A stretch of 64,000 nucleotides of DNA. Source: a virus. Its lineage: Duplodnaviria; Caudoviricetes. This document shows positions 5,784 to 41,523 of the stretch, in pieces. A model generated the notes under the pieces. The model was not told where the DNA came from and made no database searches. It saw nothing but the letters and a program-made list of their open reading frames with translations. Numbering within the stretch: the stretch's first letter is position 1; the number at the start of each line of letters is the position of its first letter. The stretch covers positions 1,649 to 65,648 of IMG/VR virus record IMGVR_UViG_3300021431_002979. The stretch is one strand, 5' to 3'. Made by a program: the position numbers and the translations under genes.

Positions 5784-6662
5784 ATGAAACTAATTAATTT
5801 TAGACAAATTGACGGTGGTATGTCGTTAGTTGCAAAAGTAAAAGAATTATCTGCATATAACGTTTATACAACCACCCTTGTAAACGCTTTAAAACAAACT
5901 GTTTTTCCTGTTAAAGAAAAAATAGATTTGTCCGATTTTGACGACCCTAAGTCTCCTGCAACAGAATTTGTTCTTGCAAATCAACCTGCTTCTCAGGACG
6001 TAGAATTATTTATTAACGGTATAATGTACGAGGAAGGAGACGCTTTTGAAGTTAATCGTGCAGAAAAGAAAATAACTTGGGTTTTTAATTCTACTGCCAA
6101 TGGTTTTGATTTATATAATGAAGTGACTGACGCTATGACAGCAAAGTATTTTATCAATGTTGTAGCAGATAAAAAATTAAAACACAAAGTTATTTTAAAC
6201 CAAACTATTCCAACAGAAGGTACTTTCGTTGAAGGTGACATTGTACTTCGTAGCCAAGCCGACAAAGAAAATAAAATTGGTTGGATTTACAAAGCTAACG
6301 AAGAAGACGCAACTCTCTTTGAATGGATTGAAATTGATATTTATTTCTTAGAAAAATTACTTGAAGAAGCTGCTAAGTTACCTGACGAACCTGAAGAATC
6401 AGAAGAACCAAAAACTGACGAAGAAAAATTACCTTATGTAACTTTTGAATCTGTTGCAGATGACGGAACACCATCAGGCAAACAAGTAGAACTTCAAGCC
6501 ACCAAAACTTGGGACGGCAAATTAGAATATTCCTATGACACCAAAAATTGGACTGAATGGGACGGTAGTACAATCACTTCCACAGACGGCAAATTATATT
6601 TGCGTGGTGTAAACAATACTATAATCTCCGACGATGTTCCATTTGTTGTTAGAGAAGTTTAA
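5784..6662 (+). CDS. Putative virion-associated protein; C-terminal beta module shared with 7412..9049
   Basis: N-terminal FVLANQP..VELFING..ITW segment like phage decoration/tail modules; C-terminal TWDGKLEYSYD..W..W..DGKLYLRG.NNT recurs inside 7412..9049. Confidence 0.5.
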   Translation: MKLINFRQIDGGMSLVAKVKELSAYNVYTTTLVNALKQTVFPVKEKIDLSDFDDPKSPATEFVLANQPASQDVELFINGIMYEEGDAFEVNRAEKKITWVFNSTANGFDLYNEVTDAMTAKYFINVVADKKLKHKVILNQTIPTEGTFVEGDIVLRSQADKENKIGWIYKANEEDATLFEWIEIDIYFLEKLLEEAAKLPDEPEESEEPKTDEEKLPYVTFESVADDGTPSGKQVELQATKTWDGKLEYSYDTKNWTEWDGSTITSTDGKLYLRGVNNTIISDDVPFVVREV

Positions 6663-6688
6663 TTTGTCCATATAAAAGGTGATAATTT

Positions 6689-7393
6689 ATGGCTATAAAA
6701 ATAAAAGGAAATATCGAGACATTGTTGGATTACGAAAAAGTAGCAAAGAATGAGCATCCTACTATGGGAGAAAATTGTTTTGCTAGTATGTTTAAAAATT
6801 GGGTGAAATTAACACAAGCTCCTGATTTACCTACTACTACATTATCTGCTAATTGTTATTCTGAAATGTTTGCAGGTTGTACAGAATTAACAAGTATTCC
6901 AAGCACTTTACCCGCTGAAACATTATCTGATTATTGTTATTTTAAAATGTTTGCTGACTGTACTAAATTATCAGTAGCCCCTACCTTACCTGCCGAAACA
7001 TTAAGCGATTATTGTTATAGCAACATGTTTCAAAATTGTAGTATGTTGGAAGGTACTCCTGAATTACCTGCAACAACTTTAGCTGTAGGTTGCTATGATA
7101 CTATGTTTAGCGGTTGTGTAAAAATTTCAACCATGCCACAATTACCTGCAACAACTTTAAGTTCAAACTGTTATTCTGATATGTTTAATGGTTGTACTAT
7201 TTTAAATTTTGCAAATTCAGACATGGAATTACCTGCAACAAAATTGTCTGTTAATTGCTATACTCAAATGTTCAAAGATTGTTCTTCTTTAACAGGCACA
7301 ATTCATTGTCCTGCTTCTGTAAGCAGTAACAAAAACAATATTACTAACAAAGGTGGCTTAAATGAAAACGTCACCGTTGTTTATGATTTATAA
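6689..7393 (+). CDS. LRR-like (BspA/TpLRR-like) repeat protein, ~6 repeats of ~26 aa
   Basis: Repeat PxLPATTLxxxCYxxMFxxCxxL; N-terminus MAIKIKGNIETLLDY and C-terminus TIHCP..VTVVYDL shared with the next gene. Confidence 0.7.
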   Translation: MAIKIKGNIETLLDYEKVAKNEHPTMGENCFASMFKNWVKLTQAPDLPTTTLSANCYSEMFAGCTELTSIPSTLPAETLSDYCYFKMFADCTKLSVAPTLPAETLSDYCYSNMFQNCSMLEGTPELPATTLAVGCYDTMFSGCVKISTMPQLPATTLSSNCYSDMFNGCTILNFANSDMELPATKLSVNCYTQMFKDCSSLTGTIHCPASVSSNKNNITNKGGLNENVTVVYDL

Positions 7394-7411
7394 GCAAAGA
7401 GGTGATAAATA

Positions 7412-9049
7412 ATGGCAATAAAAATAAAAGGTAACATTGAAAACCTTTTGGATTATCAAAAAGTAGAAAACAATGAACACCCTACTATGGGAAATAGATG
7501 TTTTGCTAGTATGTTTAAAAACAATAAGGACGTAGTTGAAGCTCCAACTTTTCCTGCAAATGTACTTTCTGACGAATGTTATGTAAATATGTTTGCAAAC
7601 TGTTCTTTAACTGTAGCTCCTACAGTTTCTGCGACAATATTCGGCATAAATTCCATGACAGGATTTTTATACAACAATTCAGCAACCGCAGGTAGCGTTT
7701 ATGAAGGCGTTGACAAAAAAATCCCATTTGAATATTATTCAAATGATTTTTTAACATTTAAAACTTCTGACGGCAGTGCTTTTTACATTTATGTAGAATT
7801 AACAGAAGAAGAACGCCAAGGACAATTAAATGGTACTATTTCACTTAACGAAAATTTAAGAAAAGTTTGGGATGGAGAAATTGAGATTTCCACAGACAAA
7901 GAGCATTGGACAACTTGGTTGGGCGATGATAGTGGTTATGCTCCTAATGGCGTACTTTATATGCGTGGTCGCGGCAATACATATGTTACCAAATACATTG
8001 ACGATACCAATTATCATAAATGGATTTGTAGTGTTGACGGTAATGTTGATTTGGAATGTACAGGCAATATCGAAACTCTTTTGGATTATGAAAAAGTTTC
8101 AAATGGTGAACATCCTACTATGGGAACAGGCTGTTTTTATGGACTATTTAGAAGTATGCCACGTTTAACGAAAGCACCTTATTTACCTGCAAAACAACTT
8201 GCTCCATATTGTTATTGTAGAATGTTTGGTGGCACTGCCATAACAAAAGCACCCGCACTTCCTGCTACTGAATTAGCTGAAAGTTGTTATGATAGAATGT
8301 TCACAGGTTGTAACGCATTAATCAACATGCCTGTTTTACCTGCAACAACCATGCAAAAAAAATGCTATAATAGTATGTTCCAATATTGTAAATCTCTAAC
8401 ACAAACACCTAAATTACCTGCTATTGAATTAGCTGAAGAATGTTATAGAGGAATGTTCACAGGTTGTACGTCACTAACCCAAGCACCTGAATTACCTGCT
8501 ACAACTTTGGCTACTAGTTGTTATCAAGGAATGTTTTATGAATGTACTTCTTTAATAAATGCTCCCAAGCTTCCTGCTTTAACTTTAGCCGATAATTGTT
8601 ATGAAAATATGTTTCAATATTGTTCTGCGTTAATAAGTGCTCCTGAATTACCTGCTGTAAATTTAACCAATGAATGTTACAGACAAATGTTTTTGGGATG
8701 TACATCATTAACCCAAGCACCTGAATTACCTGCTACTGTTTTGACGGACGCTTGTTATGGTTGGATGTTCCACGGCTGTACTTCACTAACAGAAGCACCC
8801 GAACTACCTGCAACTGTTTTAACAAAATCATGTTATCAACAAATGTTTACTTATTGCACCTCATTAACAAAAGTGCCTGCTAATTTCCCTGCTACTACAT
8901 TAGTTGAAGATTGTTATACTAATATGTTTAGTGGATGTGAAGCATTAACAACTACAATTCATTGTCCAAAATCTACTGACGGTGATTTAAACTGTCTTAA
9001 ATATTGTGCAGCATTACCTGAAACAGTTACAGTTGTTTACGATTTATAA
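7412..9049 (+). CDS. LRR-like repeat protein, ~10 C-terminal repeats of 26 aa plus duplicated cap module
   Basis: PELPATTLATSCYQGMFYECTSLINA-type repeats; cap GNIETLLDYEKV..EHPTMG..CF present twice. Confidence 0.7.
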   Translation: MAIKIKGNIENLLDYQKVENNEHPTMGNRCFASMFKNNKDVVEAPTFPANVLSDECYVNMFANCSLTVAPTVSATIFGINSMTGFLYNNSATAGSVYEGVDKKIPFEYYSNDFLTFKTSDGSAFYIYVELTEEERQGQLNGTISLNENLRKVWDGEIEISTDKEHWTTWLGDDSGYAPNGVLYMRGRGNTYVTKYIDDTNYHKWICSVDGNVDLECTGNIETLLDYEKVSNGEHPTMGTGCFYGLFRSMPRLTKAPYLPAKQLAPYCYCRMFGGTAITKAPALPATELAESCYDRMFTGCNALINMPVLPATTMQKKCYNSMFQYCKSLTQTPKLPAIELAEECYRGMFTGCTSLTQAPELPATTLATSCYQGMFYECTSLINAPKLPALTLADNCYENMFQYCSALISAPELPAVNLTNECYRQMFLGCTSLTQAPELPATVLTDACYGWMFHGCTSLTEAPELPATVLTKSCYQQMFTYCTSLTKVPANFPATTLVEDCYTNMFSGCEALTTTIHCPKSTDGDLNCLKYCAALPETVTVVYDL

Positions 9050-9053
9050 AAAC

Positions 9054-9083
9054 AAAAAGACCCCATTAAGGGGTCTTTTTTTT
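9054..9083. terminator. Bidirectional terminator between convergent cassettes
   Basis: AAAAAGACCCC-ATTAA-GGGGTCTTTTTTTT. Confidence 0.85.
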
Positions 9084-9234
9084 ATTTGTTTACAACCTTG
9101 CCGTCCTCGTCAATCTTATAACCACGTTCATCAAGAATTGCCAATACTTTATCAACATAATCTTCTTTATTAGTCTTAAGTGACTCCCAAGACAAAGTTC
9201 CTTTTATCAAACAAGTTGCGAAAAATTTTTCCAT
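9082..9234 (-). CDS. Small protein (50 aa), XkdX/CD1375-like; not in the ORF track
   Basis: MEKFFATCLIKGTLSWESLKTNKEDYVDKVLAILDERGYKIDEDGKVVNK; ATG overlaps the upstream TAA; position after tail-fibre genes is typical. Confidence 0.6.
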   Translation of the reverse strand: MEKFFATCLIKGTLSWESLKTNKEDYVDKVLAILDERGYKIDEDGKVVNK

Positions 9235-12456: not shown

Positions 12457-13359
12457 TTATAACAATCCTAATGCTTTAGCATCTCCTACTGAATAAAAGA
12501 AGGTAGCACTATCTGTACTATCCCATCTATATTTGCAACCCTTTCTGACAGAAATAAAAGTAGCTGGATAAGCCTGCCCATATACAATGTTGACCAAATT
12601 ACTTTGTCCTTGTAGATAGATTGTCGTTGCTGTTGAATTACTAACAACTAAATAGCCATTAGCAGGTGCAATCCATCTATCTGTACTATTCCAATCACCC
12701 CAATTTGTAGCAGGTAATGTAATATATACATCACTAGGCATAGCCATTTCTGCTATATCTGCTGTTGATAGAGTGTTGAGCTTGATACCTGTTATTCTTA
12801 ATAATTTAACCCCTTTAAAAGATGAACCCATTCTCGTCAAGGTTAAATTAAAAGTTGTTGTATATAGCATTTCAACTGATATATACGAAGTATCACTATC
12901 ATACAAATTGCTTTCTATAATAGTATCAATTTCGCTGACACTTACAATTGAGCTTTTTGTTTCTCTAAGAGAGTCAGTACGTAATATTTCAATTGTTATT
13001 ATAAAATAATCGTAATCAGTTAAATCAGCATTTATTGAATATGTCTGAGAACTGTATAAAGTAGTAATAAAAGTATCATTAGTTCCATCATATAAAGTAG
13101 TCTGTGTTACATTATTGATACCTTCTTTACCTATCCACTCCCATTTACCTGCCAATACATCAGTAAGGAAATCAGTACCGCTAGTGTGAGCAGTTTTACA
13201 AATATAGAGTCCGTTGGTGCTATAGACAAGCTTATTAGCTTTATAGTTAGTGTTTTCTTTCCAAGGAGTAATAGAGCCACCTTCAGTTACTCCATCACTC
13301 ACGTCTAACGTATTACAAAATATTGTATCAAATCTATTATTTTCAGCACCTAAGTTCAA
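12457..13359 (-). CDS. Tail fibre-related protein with CBM5/12-like N-terminal module
   Basis: PWKENTNYKANKLVYSTNGLYICKTAHTS..KWEW; C-terminal IAEMAMPS..APANGY..VRKG..FYSVGDAKALGLL similar to 11249..11791. Confidence 0.55.
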   Translation of the reverse strand: MNLGAENNRFDTIFCNTLDVSDGVTEGGSITPWKENTNYKANKLVYSTNGLYICKTAHTSGTDFLTDVLAGKWEWIGKEGINNVTQTTLYDGTNDTFITTLYSSQTYSINADLTDYDYFIITIEILRTDSLRETKSSIVSVSEIDTIIESNLYDSDTSYISVEMLYTTTFNLTLTRMGSSFKGVKLLRITGIKLNTLSTADIAEMAMPSDVYITLPATNWGDWNSTDRWIAPANGYLVVSNSTATTIYLQGQSNLVNIVYGQAYPATFISVRKGCKYRWDSTDSATFFYSVGDAKALGLL

Positions 13360-13437
13360 TATTAATCCACCCCTTAGTAATCTACAACATAATTAGCACA
13401 TTTAGTTAATTACAAAGGGTAATTAAAGATTGAACTA

Positions 13438-37442: not shown

Positions 37443-38153
37443 ATGGCTCAACAATTATATTTAAAAGTTTTTTTAACCAACCTTGGTAAATACAACGAAG
37501 GTGAATTGGTTGGTAATTGGGTAGATGTAGAGGACGCTGATTGGGACGAAGAACTTAAAAAAATCGGTATCTCTGACGAACCCGACAAAGACGGAAATAT
37601 TTACGAAGAATATTTTATTACAGATTATGAAACTAATATTGAAGGTCTTGCTTCTGAGTTAGGCGAATATCCTAGTCTTGATTTATTAGCTGAAATTGGT
37701 GATAATTTATCAGATATTAACAGAGACGACCCTAACAAATTTGAAGCTGTTGTTGAAAGCGGTTTTGCGGGTTCTATTAAAGACGCAATCGCAAATTATG
37801 ATGATTATTTTTATATTGACGACGTACATTCAGACAGCGATTTAGGGTATGCTTATTTTCATGACATTTTAGGTGACGACATTTCACAAGTTGCTAATGC
37901 AGATAATTACTTTGATTATGAAGCTTATGGTCGTGACGTTGCACTTGAAAGCCCTGATTATATTGACGAAATGTATGGTGAAGATGACGCACCTGACGAT
38001 TACACCATTGGTAGTGATTTGGTTGACAGCATTGGCGGTTTAGAATATTTATCCAAAGACGCTAAAGAACAATATTTCGATTTTGACCAATTCGGCAGAG
38101 ATTTGTCTTTTGACGGTACATTTGCAGGCAATGGGTTTTTATTCAATCAATAA
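37443..38153 (+). CDS. ardA: Antirestriction protein ArdA (acidic DNA mimic)
   Basis: FLTNLGKYNEGELVGNW, EEYFITDYE, LGEY.SL..L, YFDYEAYGRD and YFDFDQFGRDL; very acidic. Confidence 0.9.
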   Translation: MAQQLYLKVFLTNLGKYNEGELVGNWVDVEDADWDEELKKIGISDEPDKDGNIYEEYFITDYETNIEGLASELGEYPSLDLLAEIGDNLSDINRDDPNKFEAVVESGFAGSIKDAIANYDDYFYIDDVHSDSDLGYAYFHDILGDDISQVANADNYFDYEAYGRDVALESPDYIDEMYGEDDAPDDYTIGSDLVDSIGGLEYLSKDAKEQYFDFDQFGRDLSFDGTFAGNGFLFNQ

Positions 38154-38155
38154 TT

Positions 38156-38185
38156 AAAAGAGTCCGTTTAAACGGACTCTTTTTT
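38156..38185. terminator. Bidirectional terminator between ardA and the MTase-like gene
   Basis: AAAAGAGTCCGT-TTAA-ACGGACTCTTTT. Confidence 0.8.
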
Positions 38186-40075
38186 GTTTAACACTTTATA
38201 TATTCTTTTAGCAGTTTCAATAGCATAGGGCTGAAAAATACTTCTGCCCGCTCTTTCATACAACGCAGAATTAGACAATCCCGTATTAATCATAGCGTCT
38301 ATATCTGCTTCTTTGATACCTTGCAATCTAAAAACTTCCCGTGGGGTTAATTTTCTCAACTTACCATATTGAACAACCAATGGCACATTGTTACCACCCG
38401 TACCCATTGAGGCTGTTAAGGTTGGTACATATCCATCAAATCTCCTAAAATAGCCACGTCTGTATTGAAAGATAGATGTTTCTGTATCATACGTGTAACT
38501 TGTTGGTCTGAGAGGAAAAATGTTCTCGGTGGGTTTTTCTCTAAGATGTCCGACAATGAATACCCTTTCTCTGATGATGGGGTAGCCAAAATCTTTTGCG
38601 TTTGGACAATGCCATTCGACATCGTACCCCAATTCGTCCAACTTCCTGAGTATTGTTCTAAAGGAGTTTCCTTTATCATGATTTAACAATCCTTTCACAT
38701 TTTCAAACCAAAACATTCTTGGTTTTTTTATTTCTAACATTTTCGCTAGTTCCCAAAACATTTGCCCACGGGGGTCTGTGGATTCAAAGCCCATTCTGTC
38801 ACCAGCAATAGAAAACTTGGCACAATTATGAGCAATACAATTATTAGCAACAAAAGAATGATTTTCCTCTACAGTAATATCATAAACAAGTTCTCGAACA
38901 TTGGCTTTTTCAACTTTCTTTATTGGAAACCAAATATATCCATTTTCATAAAAAGCCTTGTCTTGGGAACTTATTTCTTTTTTAAATTCTACAATATAAA
39001 AAGGACGGCAATTAACGGTTCTACCCTCAATAACACGGGTTTTTGCATTGTTTCTAAAATAAATAGACGTTGGACGACGATAAACTTTCGCAACAACCTG
39101 CGAAAAAGTATACGCTAATTTTTGACTAATTGTAGTAATACGATATTTTTTTTGTTTTGTAAAATAACCGTCACTATCAAGATACCCCTCAATAATTTTA
39201 GATAAATATTTAGGGCTTAAATCAATAAACTCTTGTGGTATAAATTTATTTTCTGCACCTTTACCCATTTTTGCAAAAAAATTAGCCATTTCAACGTTCG
39301 AGAAAATATATTTATTAACAGTTTTTTCTTCAACTTTAGTATAATGATATTTTTCCCCAATAATCGTTTCAAACTTGTCGGCTTTGTGTTTACCACAGCA
39401 AACAATTACTCCACCAACACCTGTGCTACGGTCTTTACGTGCTCTAATCCAACCGTCTCCCAAATATCTACCTGCCAAATACCAAATAGTTTCTTCAGAT
39501 AAATCAATATTAGTATATTCCGAAGTACATGGCTCATTATTTTTATCATTAACGGGGAAACCCATATAATATTCTTTTGTTAAATTTTTACATTCAACCC
39601 ACGTCGGATTCGTAAACTTACGAACATTTTTATGCCCTTCTCTATATTTTTTTCTAACATAAAAAAGATGATTTTCTGTAGTTCTTAACCCCGCAGTAGC
39701 CATAGCATCAACGTCCCAAATTTCCTTTTCGCCTTGCTCTAATATTGCGGAAACTGCTTTATATGTTCCGTCATGTGTAAGAACCTTATCACCATTTTTA
39801 ATGTCTTTTATTGCAACCAACCCATCGTCTGTAATTACCAAAGTATCTCCTGTAAAGCAAGGAAATCCCCCGCAAAGCAAATCCATATCAGGCAATGTAT
39901 TATAATCAAATGTTCTTATATCGTCAGGGAAAGGCTCGTCACCATGTATTGCTTTATAACAAATCTGAGCGTCTTTATTATAATCAGAACTAAACACACA
40001 TTCTGAATCCACATGGTTCAATGCCATTCTAAATCCACCAATGCCACAGAACATATCTGCATATTTTATAGTCAT
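38168..40075 (-). CDS. C5-cytosine DNA methyltransferase homolog with intein; candidate carboxymethyltransferase
   Basis: Motif I DMFCGIGG; motif IV GGFP|C(AKFSIAG) split by intein; motif VI ENVKG; motif VIII RERVF; motif IX LTPRE..RLQG; motif X AGRS (canonical GNS); ~290 aa after splicing. Confidence 0.85.
   Translation of the reverse strand: MTIKYADMFCGIGGFRMALNHVDSECVFSSDYNKDAQICYKAIHGDEPFPDDIRTFDYNTLPDMDLLCGGFPCFTGDTLVITDDGLVAIKDIKNGDKVLTHDGTYKAVSAILEQGEKEIWDVDAMATAGLRTTENHLFYVRKKYREGHKNVRKFTNPTWVECKNLTKEYYMGFPVNDKNNEPCTSEYTNIDLSEETIWYLAGRYLGDGWIRARKDRSTGVGGVIVCCGKHKADKFETIIGEKYHYTKVEEKTVNKYIFSNVEMANFFAKMGKGAENKFIPQEFIDLSPKYLSKIIEGYLDSDGYFTKQKKYRITTISQKLAYTFSQVVAKVYRRPTSIYFRNNAKTRVIEGRTVNCRPFYIVEFKKEISSQDKAFYENGYIWFPIKKVEKANVRELVYDITVEENHSFVANNCIAHNCAKFSIAGDRMGFESTDPRGQMFWELAKMLEIKKPRMFWFENVKGLLNHDKGNSFRTILRKLDELGYDVEWHCPNAKDFGYPIIRERVFIVGHLREKPTENIFPLRPTSYTYDTETSIFQYRRGYFRRFDGYVPTLTASMGTGGNNVPLVVQYGKLRKLTPREVFRLQGIKEADIDAMINTGLSNSALYERAGRSIFQPYAIETAKRIYKVLNKKESV
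38825..39859 (-). mobile_element. Intein with LAGLIDADG homing endonuclease (345 aa)
   Basis: Starts CFTGDTLV, ends VYDITVEENHSFVANNCIAHN before Cys+1; LAGLIDADG-like blocks YLAGRYLGDG and IIEGYLDSDG. Confidence 0.92.
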
Positions 40076-40797
40076 TAATAACCTTCCTTTATAGCTACTA
40101 TTCCTTCAAAATTCAAACAACGCCAAAAAGTTTCTATTTGTTTAAATCCTGCTTGTTTTAACAAATCCACATTCCAAGCAGAAGTACAAGGAACTAATAC
40201 ACCTTCCAACGATTTTTTCTTTCTATCAATAGACTCATAACTATAACCATTTGCATTTTTAATAGAATAGTACGAATCCACTAACAAATTGTTTATGACA
40301 GAATTAGAACCCATAACTTTTTCTACAAATATAAACATACCATTTGGTAACAAGGAATTATATATATCTGTTAAAATCTCTTGTCTGTATTCCATAGGCA
40401 CAAACTGCAAAGTGAGTATAGACGTAATATAATTCATTTTGGTAAAATTAGGAACATTCTTCAACCCGTCTCTTACGTCAAAACAACATATGCAAGTGTT
40501 AGGTCTGTCTGCAAACTTACTTTTAGCTTTATCAATCATAGGCTCGCTAATATCAATACCATATAAATTAATAGGCTCATTTGCAAACAATTCCATATTT
40601 ATTCCATTAGAACAACCTATATCGAGCAAGCTGTAATTTTGATTACAGTTTATTTTCATATCTTTTGTAACCAATAATCTAGTCAAATCTCTCATTCTAT
40701 GATAATCGGGAATTGACCGTTCAAGCATATTCTCAAAGCACTCAGCTACTTCTTGATTAAATTCCCATTTACCTTTTGGCACTACATTGTCTAACAT
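40075..40797 (-). CDS. cmoA: CmoA-like carboxy-SAM synthase/class I SAM-binding protein
   Basis: WEFNQEVAECFENMLERSIPDY, LDIGCSNG, TLQF, FVEK, KNANGYS, AGF..FWRCLNF all follow the CmoA pattern; TAATG overlap with the MTase gene. Confidence 0.78.
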   Translation of the reverse strand: MLDNVVPKGKWEFNQEVAECFENMLERSIPDYHRMRDLTRLLVTKDMKINCNQNYSLLDIGCSNGINMELFANEPINLYGIDISEPMIDKAKSKFADRPNTCICCFDVRDGLKNVPNFTKMNYITSILTLQFVPMEYRQEILTDIYNSLLPNGMFIFVEKVMGSNSVINNLLVDSYYSIKNANGYSYESIDRKKKSLEGVLVPCTSAWNVDLLKQAGFKQIETFWRCLNFEGIVAIKEGY

Positions 40798-40851
40798 TTG
40801 CTACCCACCTTTTTTTTTGTTTATATTATATTTTTTTGCCCACTAAATTGT

Positions 40852-40881
40852 AAAAGCCCTATATTACTATAGGGCTTTTTT
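40852..40881 (-). terminator. Rho-independent terminator
   Basis: AAAAGCCCTAT/ATAGGGCTTTT. Confidence 0.7.
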
Positions 40882-41337
40882 GTTATTTATTGTTATATAC
40901 AAATCATATTGATAATAATCTCGCATGATAAAAAGATATTGTTTTTGATTATATATGCCTCGACCTTTATGTGTTAATACTCTGTTTTTTCTATTAGGTA
41001 TCTTAAGCCATTGTTTTAAAAAATACTCATACGACGACAACACTTCTACATGATTTTCACCGAAAGGATTTCCCGTCGAAACCATACCAAACCAACTATT
41101 ATGAAATTTATCATAATCGGGTTCATAATTATCATAATCTTCTTTGGTCATATTATCAAAAAAACCTTCTATTTCAGAATTTTTATCATAATCATAATAT
41201 TTAAAGAATAATGCTATTTGATTATTTCTCAATTCTTTTAAAACTTGACGGGTTATGTTATGTGCAATTATCCACTTTTCGTCAAACAATTCTTGATACA
41301 ATCGTTTTTCTTCTTCTATAGTAAAATTTATTAACAT
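40867..41337 (-). CDS. Hypothetical protein
   Basis: 156 aa ORF abutting the upstream small gene; no recognised motif. Confidence 0.55.
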   Translation of the reverse strand: MLINFTIEEEKRLYQELFDEKWIIAHNITRQVLKELRNNQIALFFKYYDYDKNSEIEGFFDNMTKEDYDNYEPDYDKFHNSWFGMVSTGNPFGENHVEVLSSYEYFLKQWLKIPNRKNRVLTHKGRGIYNQKQYLFIMRDYYQYDLYITINNKKAL

Positions 41338-41523
41338 TCATTTAACCTCGCCCACAATTTCAAAATTTTGCGTTATTTTTATAATTTTATAAGGAGCATA
41401 TGCGGGTTGGTCAAACTTTGCAAATTCCACCGCTTCTTTATAAGTATCAAAATATATAATGCTTATGTGTCCCATTTTATTCATAGTACAATAATTTATT
41501 TTTTCTTTTAAATTTTCTTCCAT
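41338..41523 (-). CDS. Hypothetical small protein
   Basis: 61 aa ORF with AAGGAGG RBS. Confidence 0.55.
   Translation of the reverse strand: MEENLKEKINYCTMNKMGHISIIYFDTYKEAVEFAKFDQPAYAPYKIIKITQNFEIVGEVK

Follow-up and report, generated by a model that had tools for sequence, protein, structure and literature searches.

A cmoA-linked cytosine methyltransferase homolog with an arginine in motif X, predicted to carboxymethylate the DNA of a very large gut phage

The stretch of DNA analysed here (the window) comprises 64,000 nucleotides (nt) of the IMG/VR virus record IMGVR_UViG_3300021431_002979 and carries a cmoA-like gene joined to the gene of a C5-cytosine DNA methyltransferase (MTase) homolog. 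The two genes probably constitute a phage module that places 5-carboxymethylcytosine (5cxmC) in DNA, in other words a CmoA/CmoX system in a divergent, HhaI-like form. Systems of this kind have already been published and are not new; the activities of CmoA, CmoX and CmoY have been shown, and 5,615 CmoX and 4,257 CmoA sequences have been predicted in phage data (PMC12783734, Nat Commun 2025). The locus in the window is a divergent form of such a system. The supplements of that paper come without a sequence or contig list to compare with the clade of the window. Our literature search turned up no further publication on CmoX enzymes from nature.

The original prediction, made from the letters of the window, took the pair for the cofactor synthase and the writer of 5cxmC. 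The analysis supports this reading through the equivalence of the motif X arginine with Arg350 of the CmoX of Synechococcus phage S-B43 (SpCmoX), the linkage of cmoA to enzymes with this arginine, and the absence of CmoB from the genomes searched. The published background on which it drew was also found to be correct: CmoA makes carboxy-S-adenosylmethionine (Cx-SAM), M.MpeI N374K is an engineered carboxymethyltransferase, and phage S-B43 encodes a CmoX with Arg350 (PMC12783734, PMC13288465). The conversion of E. coli Dcm by a motif X mutation, stated there as well, was not confirmed in the literature on CmoX and engineered enzymes. The features of the two genes are as follows.

40075..40797 (-): cmoA-like gene, 240 amino acids, predicted Cx-SAM synthase (open reading frame list and CmoA homology)
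38168..40075 (-): cmoX-like C5-MTase precursor, 635 amino acids including the intein (PF00145, TIGR00675)
39860..40075 (-): N-extein, amino acids 1-72, from motif I FCGIGGFR to motif IV GGFP (translation; aligned with HhaI residues 12-80 via the clade profile)
38825..39859 (-): intein, amino acids 73-417, 345 amino acids, class 1, with a LAGLIDADG homing endonuclease (translation, Pfam and NCBIfam intein models)
38171..38824 (-): C-extein, amino acids 418-635, 218 amino acids, with the catalytic Cys, Ala74, ENV, PIIRER, a short target-recognition region and motif X (translation, alignments to HhaI, Dcm and SpCmoX)
38822-38824 (-): codon of the catalytic Cys73, the +1 residue of the intein (translation)
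38819-38821 (-): codon of Ala74 (translation)
38243..38245 (-): codon AGA of Arg266 (spliced numbering; Arg611 of the precursor), the predicted residue binding the Cx-SAM carboxylate (alignments)

The TAA stop codon of the cmoA-like gene and the MTase start codon ATG have base 40075 in common, and the open reading frames thus confirm the one-base TAATG overlap that had been noted at this junction. In the proposed pathway, the CmoA homolog would turn S-adenosylmethionine (SAM) and prephenate into Cx-SAM. The MTase gene, translationally coupled through TAATG, would give a 635-amino-acid precursor that is presumably inactive, as the 345-amino-acid intein splits motif IV. Splicing, with the MTase's own catalytic cysteine as the +1 nucleophile, would yield a 290-amino-acid enzyme with an intact GFPC loop. 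This mature enzyme would flip the cytosine, Cys73 would attack C6, and C5 would receive the carboxymethyl group from Cx-SAM. Arg266, at the position of the motif X Asn, is expected to bind the carboxylate, and Ala74 and Ile155, at the positions of the motif IV and motif VIII glutamines, may open the pocket. The resulting 5cxmC on phage DNA could block restriction enzymes, together with the neighbouring ArdA, and the intein would be a separate selfish element that homes into conserved motif IV DNA.

Motifs and cofactor pocket of the methyltransferase homolog

The precursor is matched by PF00145 in three pieces (4.5e-58) and by TIGR00675 (1.3e-61). The spliced protein has the predicted length of 290 amino acids and reads GGFP/CAKFS in motif IV (the slash marks the intein position), PIIRER in motif VIII and LYERAGRSI in motif X. 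Translation gives the PCAKFS and PIIRER variants as first described, and the AGA codon of the motif X arginine is read directly at 38243-38245.

A profile built from 20 intein-free relatives aligned with M.HhaI at E 3e-56, the best match of the window enzyme by sequence among solved structures. In this alignment Arg266 corresponds to HhaI Asn304, Ala74 to Gln82 and Ile155 to Gln161, and in a direct alignment Arg266 pairs with the Asn of 'QFGNSV' in Dcm. When SpCmoX (MN018232) and the spliced window protein were aligned to one hidden Markov model (HMM), C73 fell on C98 (also HhaI C81), E113 on E156, R157 and R159 on R200 and R202, E262-R263 on E346-R347, and R266 on R350. The original prediction had left the placement of the arginine to such a comparison, and it does fall on the motif X Asn of HhaI and Dcm and on Arg350 of SpCmoX. 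A contiguous PC motif around the catalytic cysteine requires splicing of the intein.

Published work gives these positions a functional meaning. In structure 8YF3, R350 of SpCmoX touches the carboxymethyl group of Cx-SAM; the wild-type enzyme takes Cx-SAM only (PMC12783734). Gln82 and Asn304 of M.HhaI line or crowd the pocket around the transferred group, and the Q82A change cuts methyl transfer about 16-fold (PMC3526304). Arg266 is accordingly placed, by alignment, as the predicted contact of the Cx-SAM carboxylate. The natural substitutions of the window enzyme hit two of the three pocket-opening positions (Q82 and N304) of the engineered M.HhaI Q82A/Y254S/N304A (PMC3526304). At N304, however, the window has Arg, a charge partner for the carboxylate, and not Ala, and its predicted cofactor is Cx-SAM rather than a synthetic propargylic analog. 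A cationic residue at or near the motif X Asn likewise leads to Cx-SAM use and 5cxmC in engineered M.MpeI N374K and M.CviPI variants (PMC13288465). Those mutants are still active with SAM and retain Gln in motif IV, whereas the changes in the window are natural, are fixed in the clade and go together with replacement of this Gln.

The residue pattern was followed in 120 database homologs and the window protein. Only two combinations occur in 121/121 sequences, PCQ with YKQxGN or PC(A/C/F) with YERxGR. Since the motif X Arg always joins a non-Gln residue after PC and 'YER' in place of 'YKQ' in this set, the pattern of the Arg-type enzymes is far beyond chance.

In a FastTree phylogeny, calculated with the trait columns kept in and with SpCmoX on a very long branch, all Arg-type GFPC enzymes form one clade (support 98) within Asn-type HhaI-like enzymes. 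One origin of the motif X Arg for the GFPC clade and SpCmoX, or two, both fit this tree. The window subclade (30 rows, 262-316 amino acids) has PC(A/C/F) and has lost the motif VIII Gln (P[IV]xRER). In its closest members cmoA lies directly upstream of the MTase gene, as in the window; among the loci read, this order is found in L001-L004, L008 and the window, and cmoA lies about 0.5 kb downstream in L005-L007. The sister clade from IMG/VR, a 'PCAT' subclade of 44 rows, shares the GFPC scaffold, PCA, YERxGR and an adjacent cmoA. It differs in keeping the motif VIII Gln (PQNRER), in its length of 320-370 amino acids and in the downstream position of cmoA, and a CmoY-like ligase is near 2/39 of its loci.

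The L005-L007 loci (6001-9095) have a further peculiarity. The Arg-type enzyme (PCF, YERAGRM) is followed there by two small open reading frames, cmoA and then, directly after cmoA, an ordinary PCQ-type C5-MTase; by this gene order, the phage would have both a predicted 5cxmC writer and a writer of 5-methylcytosine (5mC). Upstream in L005 lies a dNK-like kinase gene fused to or interrupted by an HNH/NUMOD4 endonuclease, which is lacking in L006 and L007.

The CmoA homolog and its association with Arg-type enzymes

The best specific match of the 240-amino-acid protein is by far the CmoA model TIGR00740 (E 6e-46, 157 bits, positions 9-239 of 239), and generic SAM-methyltransferase Pfam domains match as well. 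The score is below the 193.3-bit cut-off of the model; the validated CmoA of phage S-B43 (SpCmoA) reaches 115.6 bits and E. coli CmoA (EcCmoA) 455. The top PDB matches are YecO 1im8 (2e-32) and EcCmoA 4gek (3e-24). In E. coli numbering the protein keeps Y39, D62, G64, S66, D89, D117, F137, E164 and K198, and Y39, D62, G64, S66, D/E89, F137, E/D164 and K198 are conserved in 48/48 aligned CmoA sequences. CmoA homologs, with up to 42% identity, are also encoded by 82 isolated phage genomes, where they are mostly annotated as 'tRNA methyltransferase' or hypothetical. These comprise 48 Erwinia records, together with Pseudomonas, Staphylococcus, Dickeya and Yersinia phages; the listed Erwinia records are jumbo phages of 260-267 kb, and one example is the homolog at 12650-13408 of Erwinia phage vB_EamM_Y3.

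The survey of Arg-type MTases beside cmoA that the original prediction called for was made on 40 Arg-type and 40 Asn-type loci, 80 in all, which the clade profile retrieved from IMG/VR. A cmoA homolog was found in the flank of 38/40 Arg-type and 0/40 Asn-type loci (Fisher p = 1.6e-20, a value that overstates independence because the loci are related), usually 2-40 nt from the Arg-type MTase. The two Arg-type loci without cmoA are on contigs that end 107-177 nt past the MTase.

CmoB was found neither in the 65.6-kb record (13% complete according to CheckV) nor in a 281-kb relative that is judged 98% complete. The relative has a single cmoA and a single C5-MTase, which lacks an intein and is 77% identical to the window enzyme. 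Since the relative has no CmoB and a single C5-MTase, the MTase next to cmoA would be the only candidate user of Cx-SAM. The original prediction had seen no obvious downstream hypermodifying ligase in the window. This observation extends to both genomes: in neither did searches with PF00733 (Asn-synthetase-type), the SpCmoY protein, PF00501 (AMP-binding) and PF13535 (ATP-grasp_4) give a match, other ligase families being outside the search, and a CmoY-like gene is nearby in 2/40 Arg-type loci. Because no amide ligase was found, the product in the lineage of the window is probably left as bare 5cxmC.

These data bear on the explanation that the MTase is an ordinary SAM-dependent 5mC enzyme and that CmoA has a separate role, for instance depleting the SAM of the host or providing Cx-SAM for the modification of its tRNA. 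The strong PF00145 and HhaI matches would suit such an enzyme, and SAM depletion by CmoA has been raised as a possible side effect (PMC12783734). We nevertheless consider it quite unlikely, given that cmoA and the MTase gene are translationally coupled, that cmoA accompanies Arg-type and not Asn-type loci, that SAM was not accepted by SpCmoX, which has the same Arg, that Q82A impairs methyl transfer by HhaI, and that no phage CmoB was found in the two genomes.

Several observations weigh against carboxymethylation by this pair, beyond the relatedness of the surveyed loci. All that is said here about the modification in this lineage, namely its chemistry, its target sequence and its biological role, is deduced from sequence. 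The N-terminal half is the part aligned with SpCmoX for identity, which amounts there to only about 23%, and sequence searches of the PDB place HhaI, Dcm, HaeIII and MpeI above 8yf3. That structure was reached with an intein-free relative (9e-6) or the clade profile (3e-16), and a phmmer search with the C-extein alone did not reach it at E<1e-3. The window enzyme also departs from the published 'SPPC' signature, with GGFPC against the GSPPC of SpCmoX; GGFPC occurs in all 117 near homologs checked bar one (EIPPC), and SPPC is a filter applied in the published census rather than a demonstrated need of catalysis. Loss of the motif VIII Gln sets the window subclade apart. Finally, Arg199 of EcCmoA, described as the key carboxylate partner forming a salt bridge (PMC3663124), is Lys in the window protein, and Asn132 is Ile, although the validated SpCmoA lacks both residues too. 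Asn90 is likewise Ile. SpCmoA, which has Glu, Leu and Leu at positions 199, 90 and 132, is validated and faster. Because this active enzyme differs at the same positions and scores lower on TIGR00740, the changes at R199, N90 and N132 need not argue against Cx-SAM synthesis.

Some of these points could be taken to mean that the pair makes another DNA modification, the CmoA homolog giving a different SAM derivative or the remodelled pocket (Ala74, Ile155, Arg266) moving a group that is larger or of another kind. Only the window subclade lacks Gln in motif VIII (P[IV]xRER), two residues that contact the cofactor in EcCmoA are replaced in the CmoA homolog (Arg199 by Lys, Asn132 by Ile), and the searches found no ligase for which a free carboxylate would be needed. 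On the other hand, SpCmoX has the same Arg within the same E-R-x-G-R signature, the CmoA homolog fits the CmoA model better than the validated SpCmoA, Lys199 retains the positive charge and all phage CmoAs aligned have K198, and another modification therefore appears unlikely.

The intein at the catalytic cysteine

The intein follows Pro72 and immediately precedes the catalytic Cys of motif IV, which is the +1 splicing nucleophile. It begins with Cys-Phe-Thr and ends with His-Asn. All intein blocks are present by position: Cys1, TENH (block B), LAGRYLGDG and EGYLDSDG, DITV (block F) and the terminal HN. The Pfam models Intein_splicing, Hint and LAGLIDADG_3 and the NCBIfam models TIGR01445 and TIGR01443 all matched.

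A search with the intein alone returned 702 related inteins. Among the best 120 of these 702 matches, 118 carry PF00145, and the insertion site is the same P/C position in all 68 readable junctions. Within the same best 120, the only Arg-type proteins are the window protein and P0125, and of the other 118 proteins all those with a readable motif X (61/61) are Asn-type. A very large intein family, with members of about 357-371 amino acids, thus sits at the catalytic P/C site in ordinary C5-MTases of metagenomes (P0126-P0243). We found no paper in the literature searched describing the P/C insertion site of C5-MTases. The inteins of ordinary C5-MTases share with the window intein the insertion point, the HINT and LAGLIDADG architecture and 41-57% identity; the host gene in the window, however, is CmoX-type, and the only Arg-type hosts seen are the window allele and the relative P0125.

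Between the window protein and P0125 the inteins are 92% identical and the exteins 74%. The exteins of P0125 are 99.7% identical to the intein-free P0006, and the nearest extein relative of the window, P0004 (87%), is without an intein. This contrast between inteins and exteins, together with the intein-free near relatives, indicates that the intein has recently moved horizontally, homing into conserved motif IV DNA.

The position of the intein raises the question whether the MTase gene is inactivated and decaying, with selection acting on the intein only. The intein does interrupt the catalytic loop, and it is better conserved between the alleles than are the exteins. Yet the 635-codon frame is open, no damage is seen in the splicing motifs, the +1 Cys or any MTase motif, the identical protein occurs in several assemblies, and the motifs are also preserved in the intein-free alleles (87% and 74% identity), all of which makes a decaying remnant highly improbable. 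Reading the gene as a pseudogene was rejected, as frame and motifs are intact.

In four bovine gut runs no contig was found that bypasses the intein. Two RNA libraries contain contigs that span the junction of the intein and the C-extein, a weak hint of expression given that contigs cannot show transcription.

Source phage, neighbouring genes and relation to known systems

The identical 635-amino-acid precursor, with the same neighbours, is found on 333-kb and 404-kb contigs of other assemblies, and independent bovine gut runs also have contigs on which the intein-bearing allele is joined to cmoA. Animal gut metagenomes are the source of the DNA (cattle and sheep, according to partial matches), and its GC content is uniform at 32-35% over the 65.6-kb record. 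The window is a fragment of a very large animal-gut phage, and the source animal is probably a ruminant. The label 'Firmicutes-type phage' in the original prediction is not supported by the animal gut metagenomes and 333-404 kb contigs on which the DNA is found, as they do not show the host. A search of isolated phage DNA found no close isolate, only motif-level matches of about 200 nt to MTases of Streptococcus and other Firmicutes phages, which do not identify the host.

The remaining features around the pair are listed below.

40825..40854 (-): candidate sigma-70-like promoter TTTACA-18-TATAAT upstream of cmoA (11/12 consensus positions, a consensus match only)
38156..38183: hairpin with a 12-bp stem and T runs on both strands, candidate bidirectional terminator for the MTase gene and the convergent ardA (a consensus match only)
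37443..38153 (+): ardA, anti-restriction protein of 236 amino acids, convergent with the cmoA-cmoX unit (PF07275 9e-30; phrog_2059 1.5e-28)

Large virion or fibre-like genes flank the cmoA-cmoX-ardA trio, and the same arrangement is seen on independent contigs (L092-L094). Directly upstream of cmoA are two small open reading frames (156 and 61 amino acids, 40867-41523, (-)), which are kept with the cassette on the 333-kb contig; neither has a Pfam or PHROG match, the shorter one having been scanned against PHROGs only.

The closest published counterpart is the CmoA-CmoX(-CmoY) system of phage S-B43, which makes 5cxmC and 5-glycylcarboxymethylcytosine (PMC12783734; 8YF3). It has the same adjacency of cmoA and a C5-MTase homolog and the same motif X Arg. 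The two enzymes share the E-R-x-G-R signature, the catalytic Cys, the Glu of ENV and the arginines of RxR, and the two systems share the lack of CmoB and the predicted role of protecting phage DNA from restriction. They differ in that the window enzyme has GFPC for SPPC, PCA for PCS and Ile for the motif VIII Gln, and that it is only 290 amino acids long with a very short target-recognition region, compared with 372 for SpCmoX. The gene order is also reversed, with cmoA preceding cmoX and an overlapping stop and start, no CmoY was found, and an intein sits at the catalytic Cys. S-B43 is a marine cyanophage and the target of SpCmoX is GC, whereas the window belongs to a 280-400 kb phage of the animal (bovine or sheep) gut.

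A more far-reaching interpretation, which we put forward tentatively and as possible rather than probable, would be that these enzymes represent a second, HhaI-like lineage of natural carboxymethyltransferases (GFPC-A ... YERxGR) that a literal SPPC and R350 census would miss. Its pocket would be remodelled at three positions, bare 5cxmC would be the final mark of 280-400 kb ruminant-gut phages, and maturation would depend on the intein.

Until December 2025, 5cxmC was called an unnatural base. The window clade (about 30 relatives) and its sister clade suggest that carboxymethylation also occurs on a HhaI-like scaffold that differs from that of the cyanophage enzyme, and apparently with no ligase acting afterwards. 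If this is true, the window would encode a small (290 amino acids) natural carboxymethyltransferase, probably of different sequence specificity. Such an enzyme would be useful for 5cxmC sequencing and footprinting, which now rely on engineered M.MpeI and M.CviPI, and the clade would offer a natural test of the pocket residues that set the choice of cofactor (the Gln82, Gln161 and Asn304 equivalents). The intein illustrates how a selfish element can pass from ordinary MTase genes into a neofunctionalised relative via the conserved DNA of the catalytic loop and, if the reading is right, the identity of the +1 nucleophile with the catalytic Cys could make DNA modification in these phages conditional on splicing.

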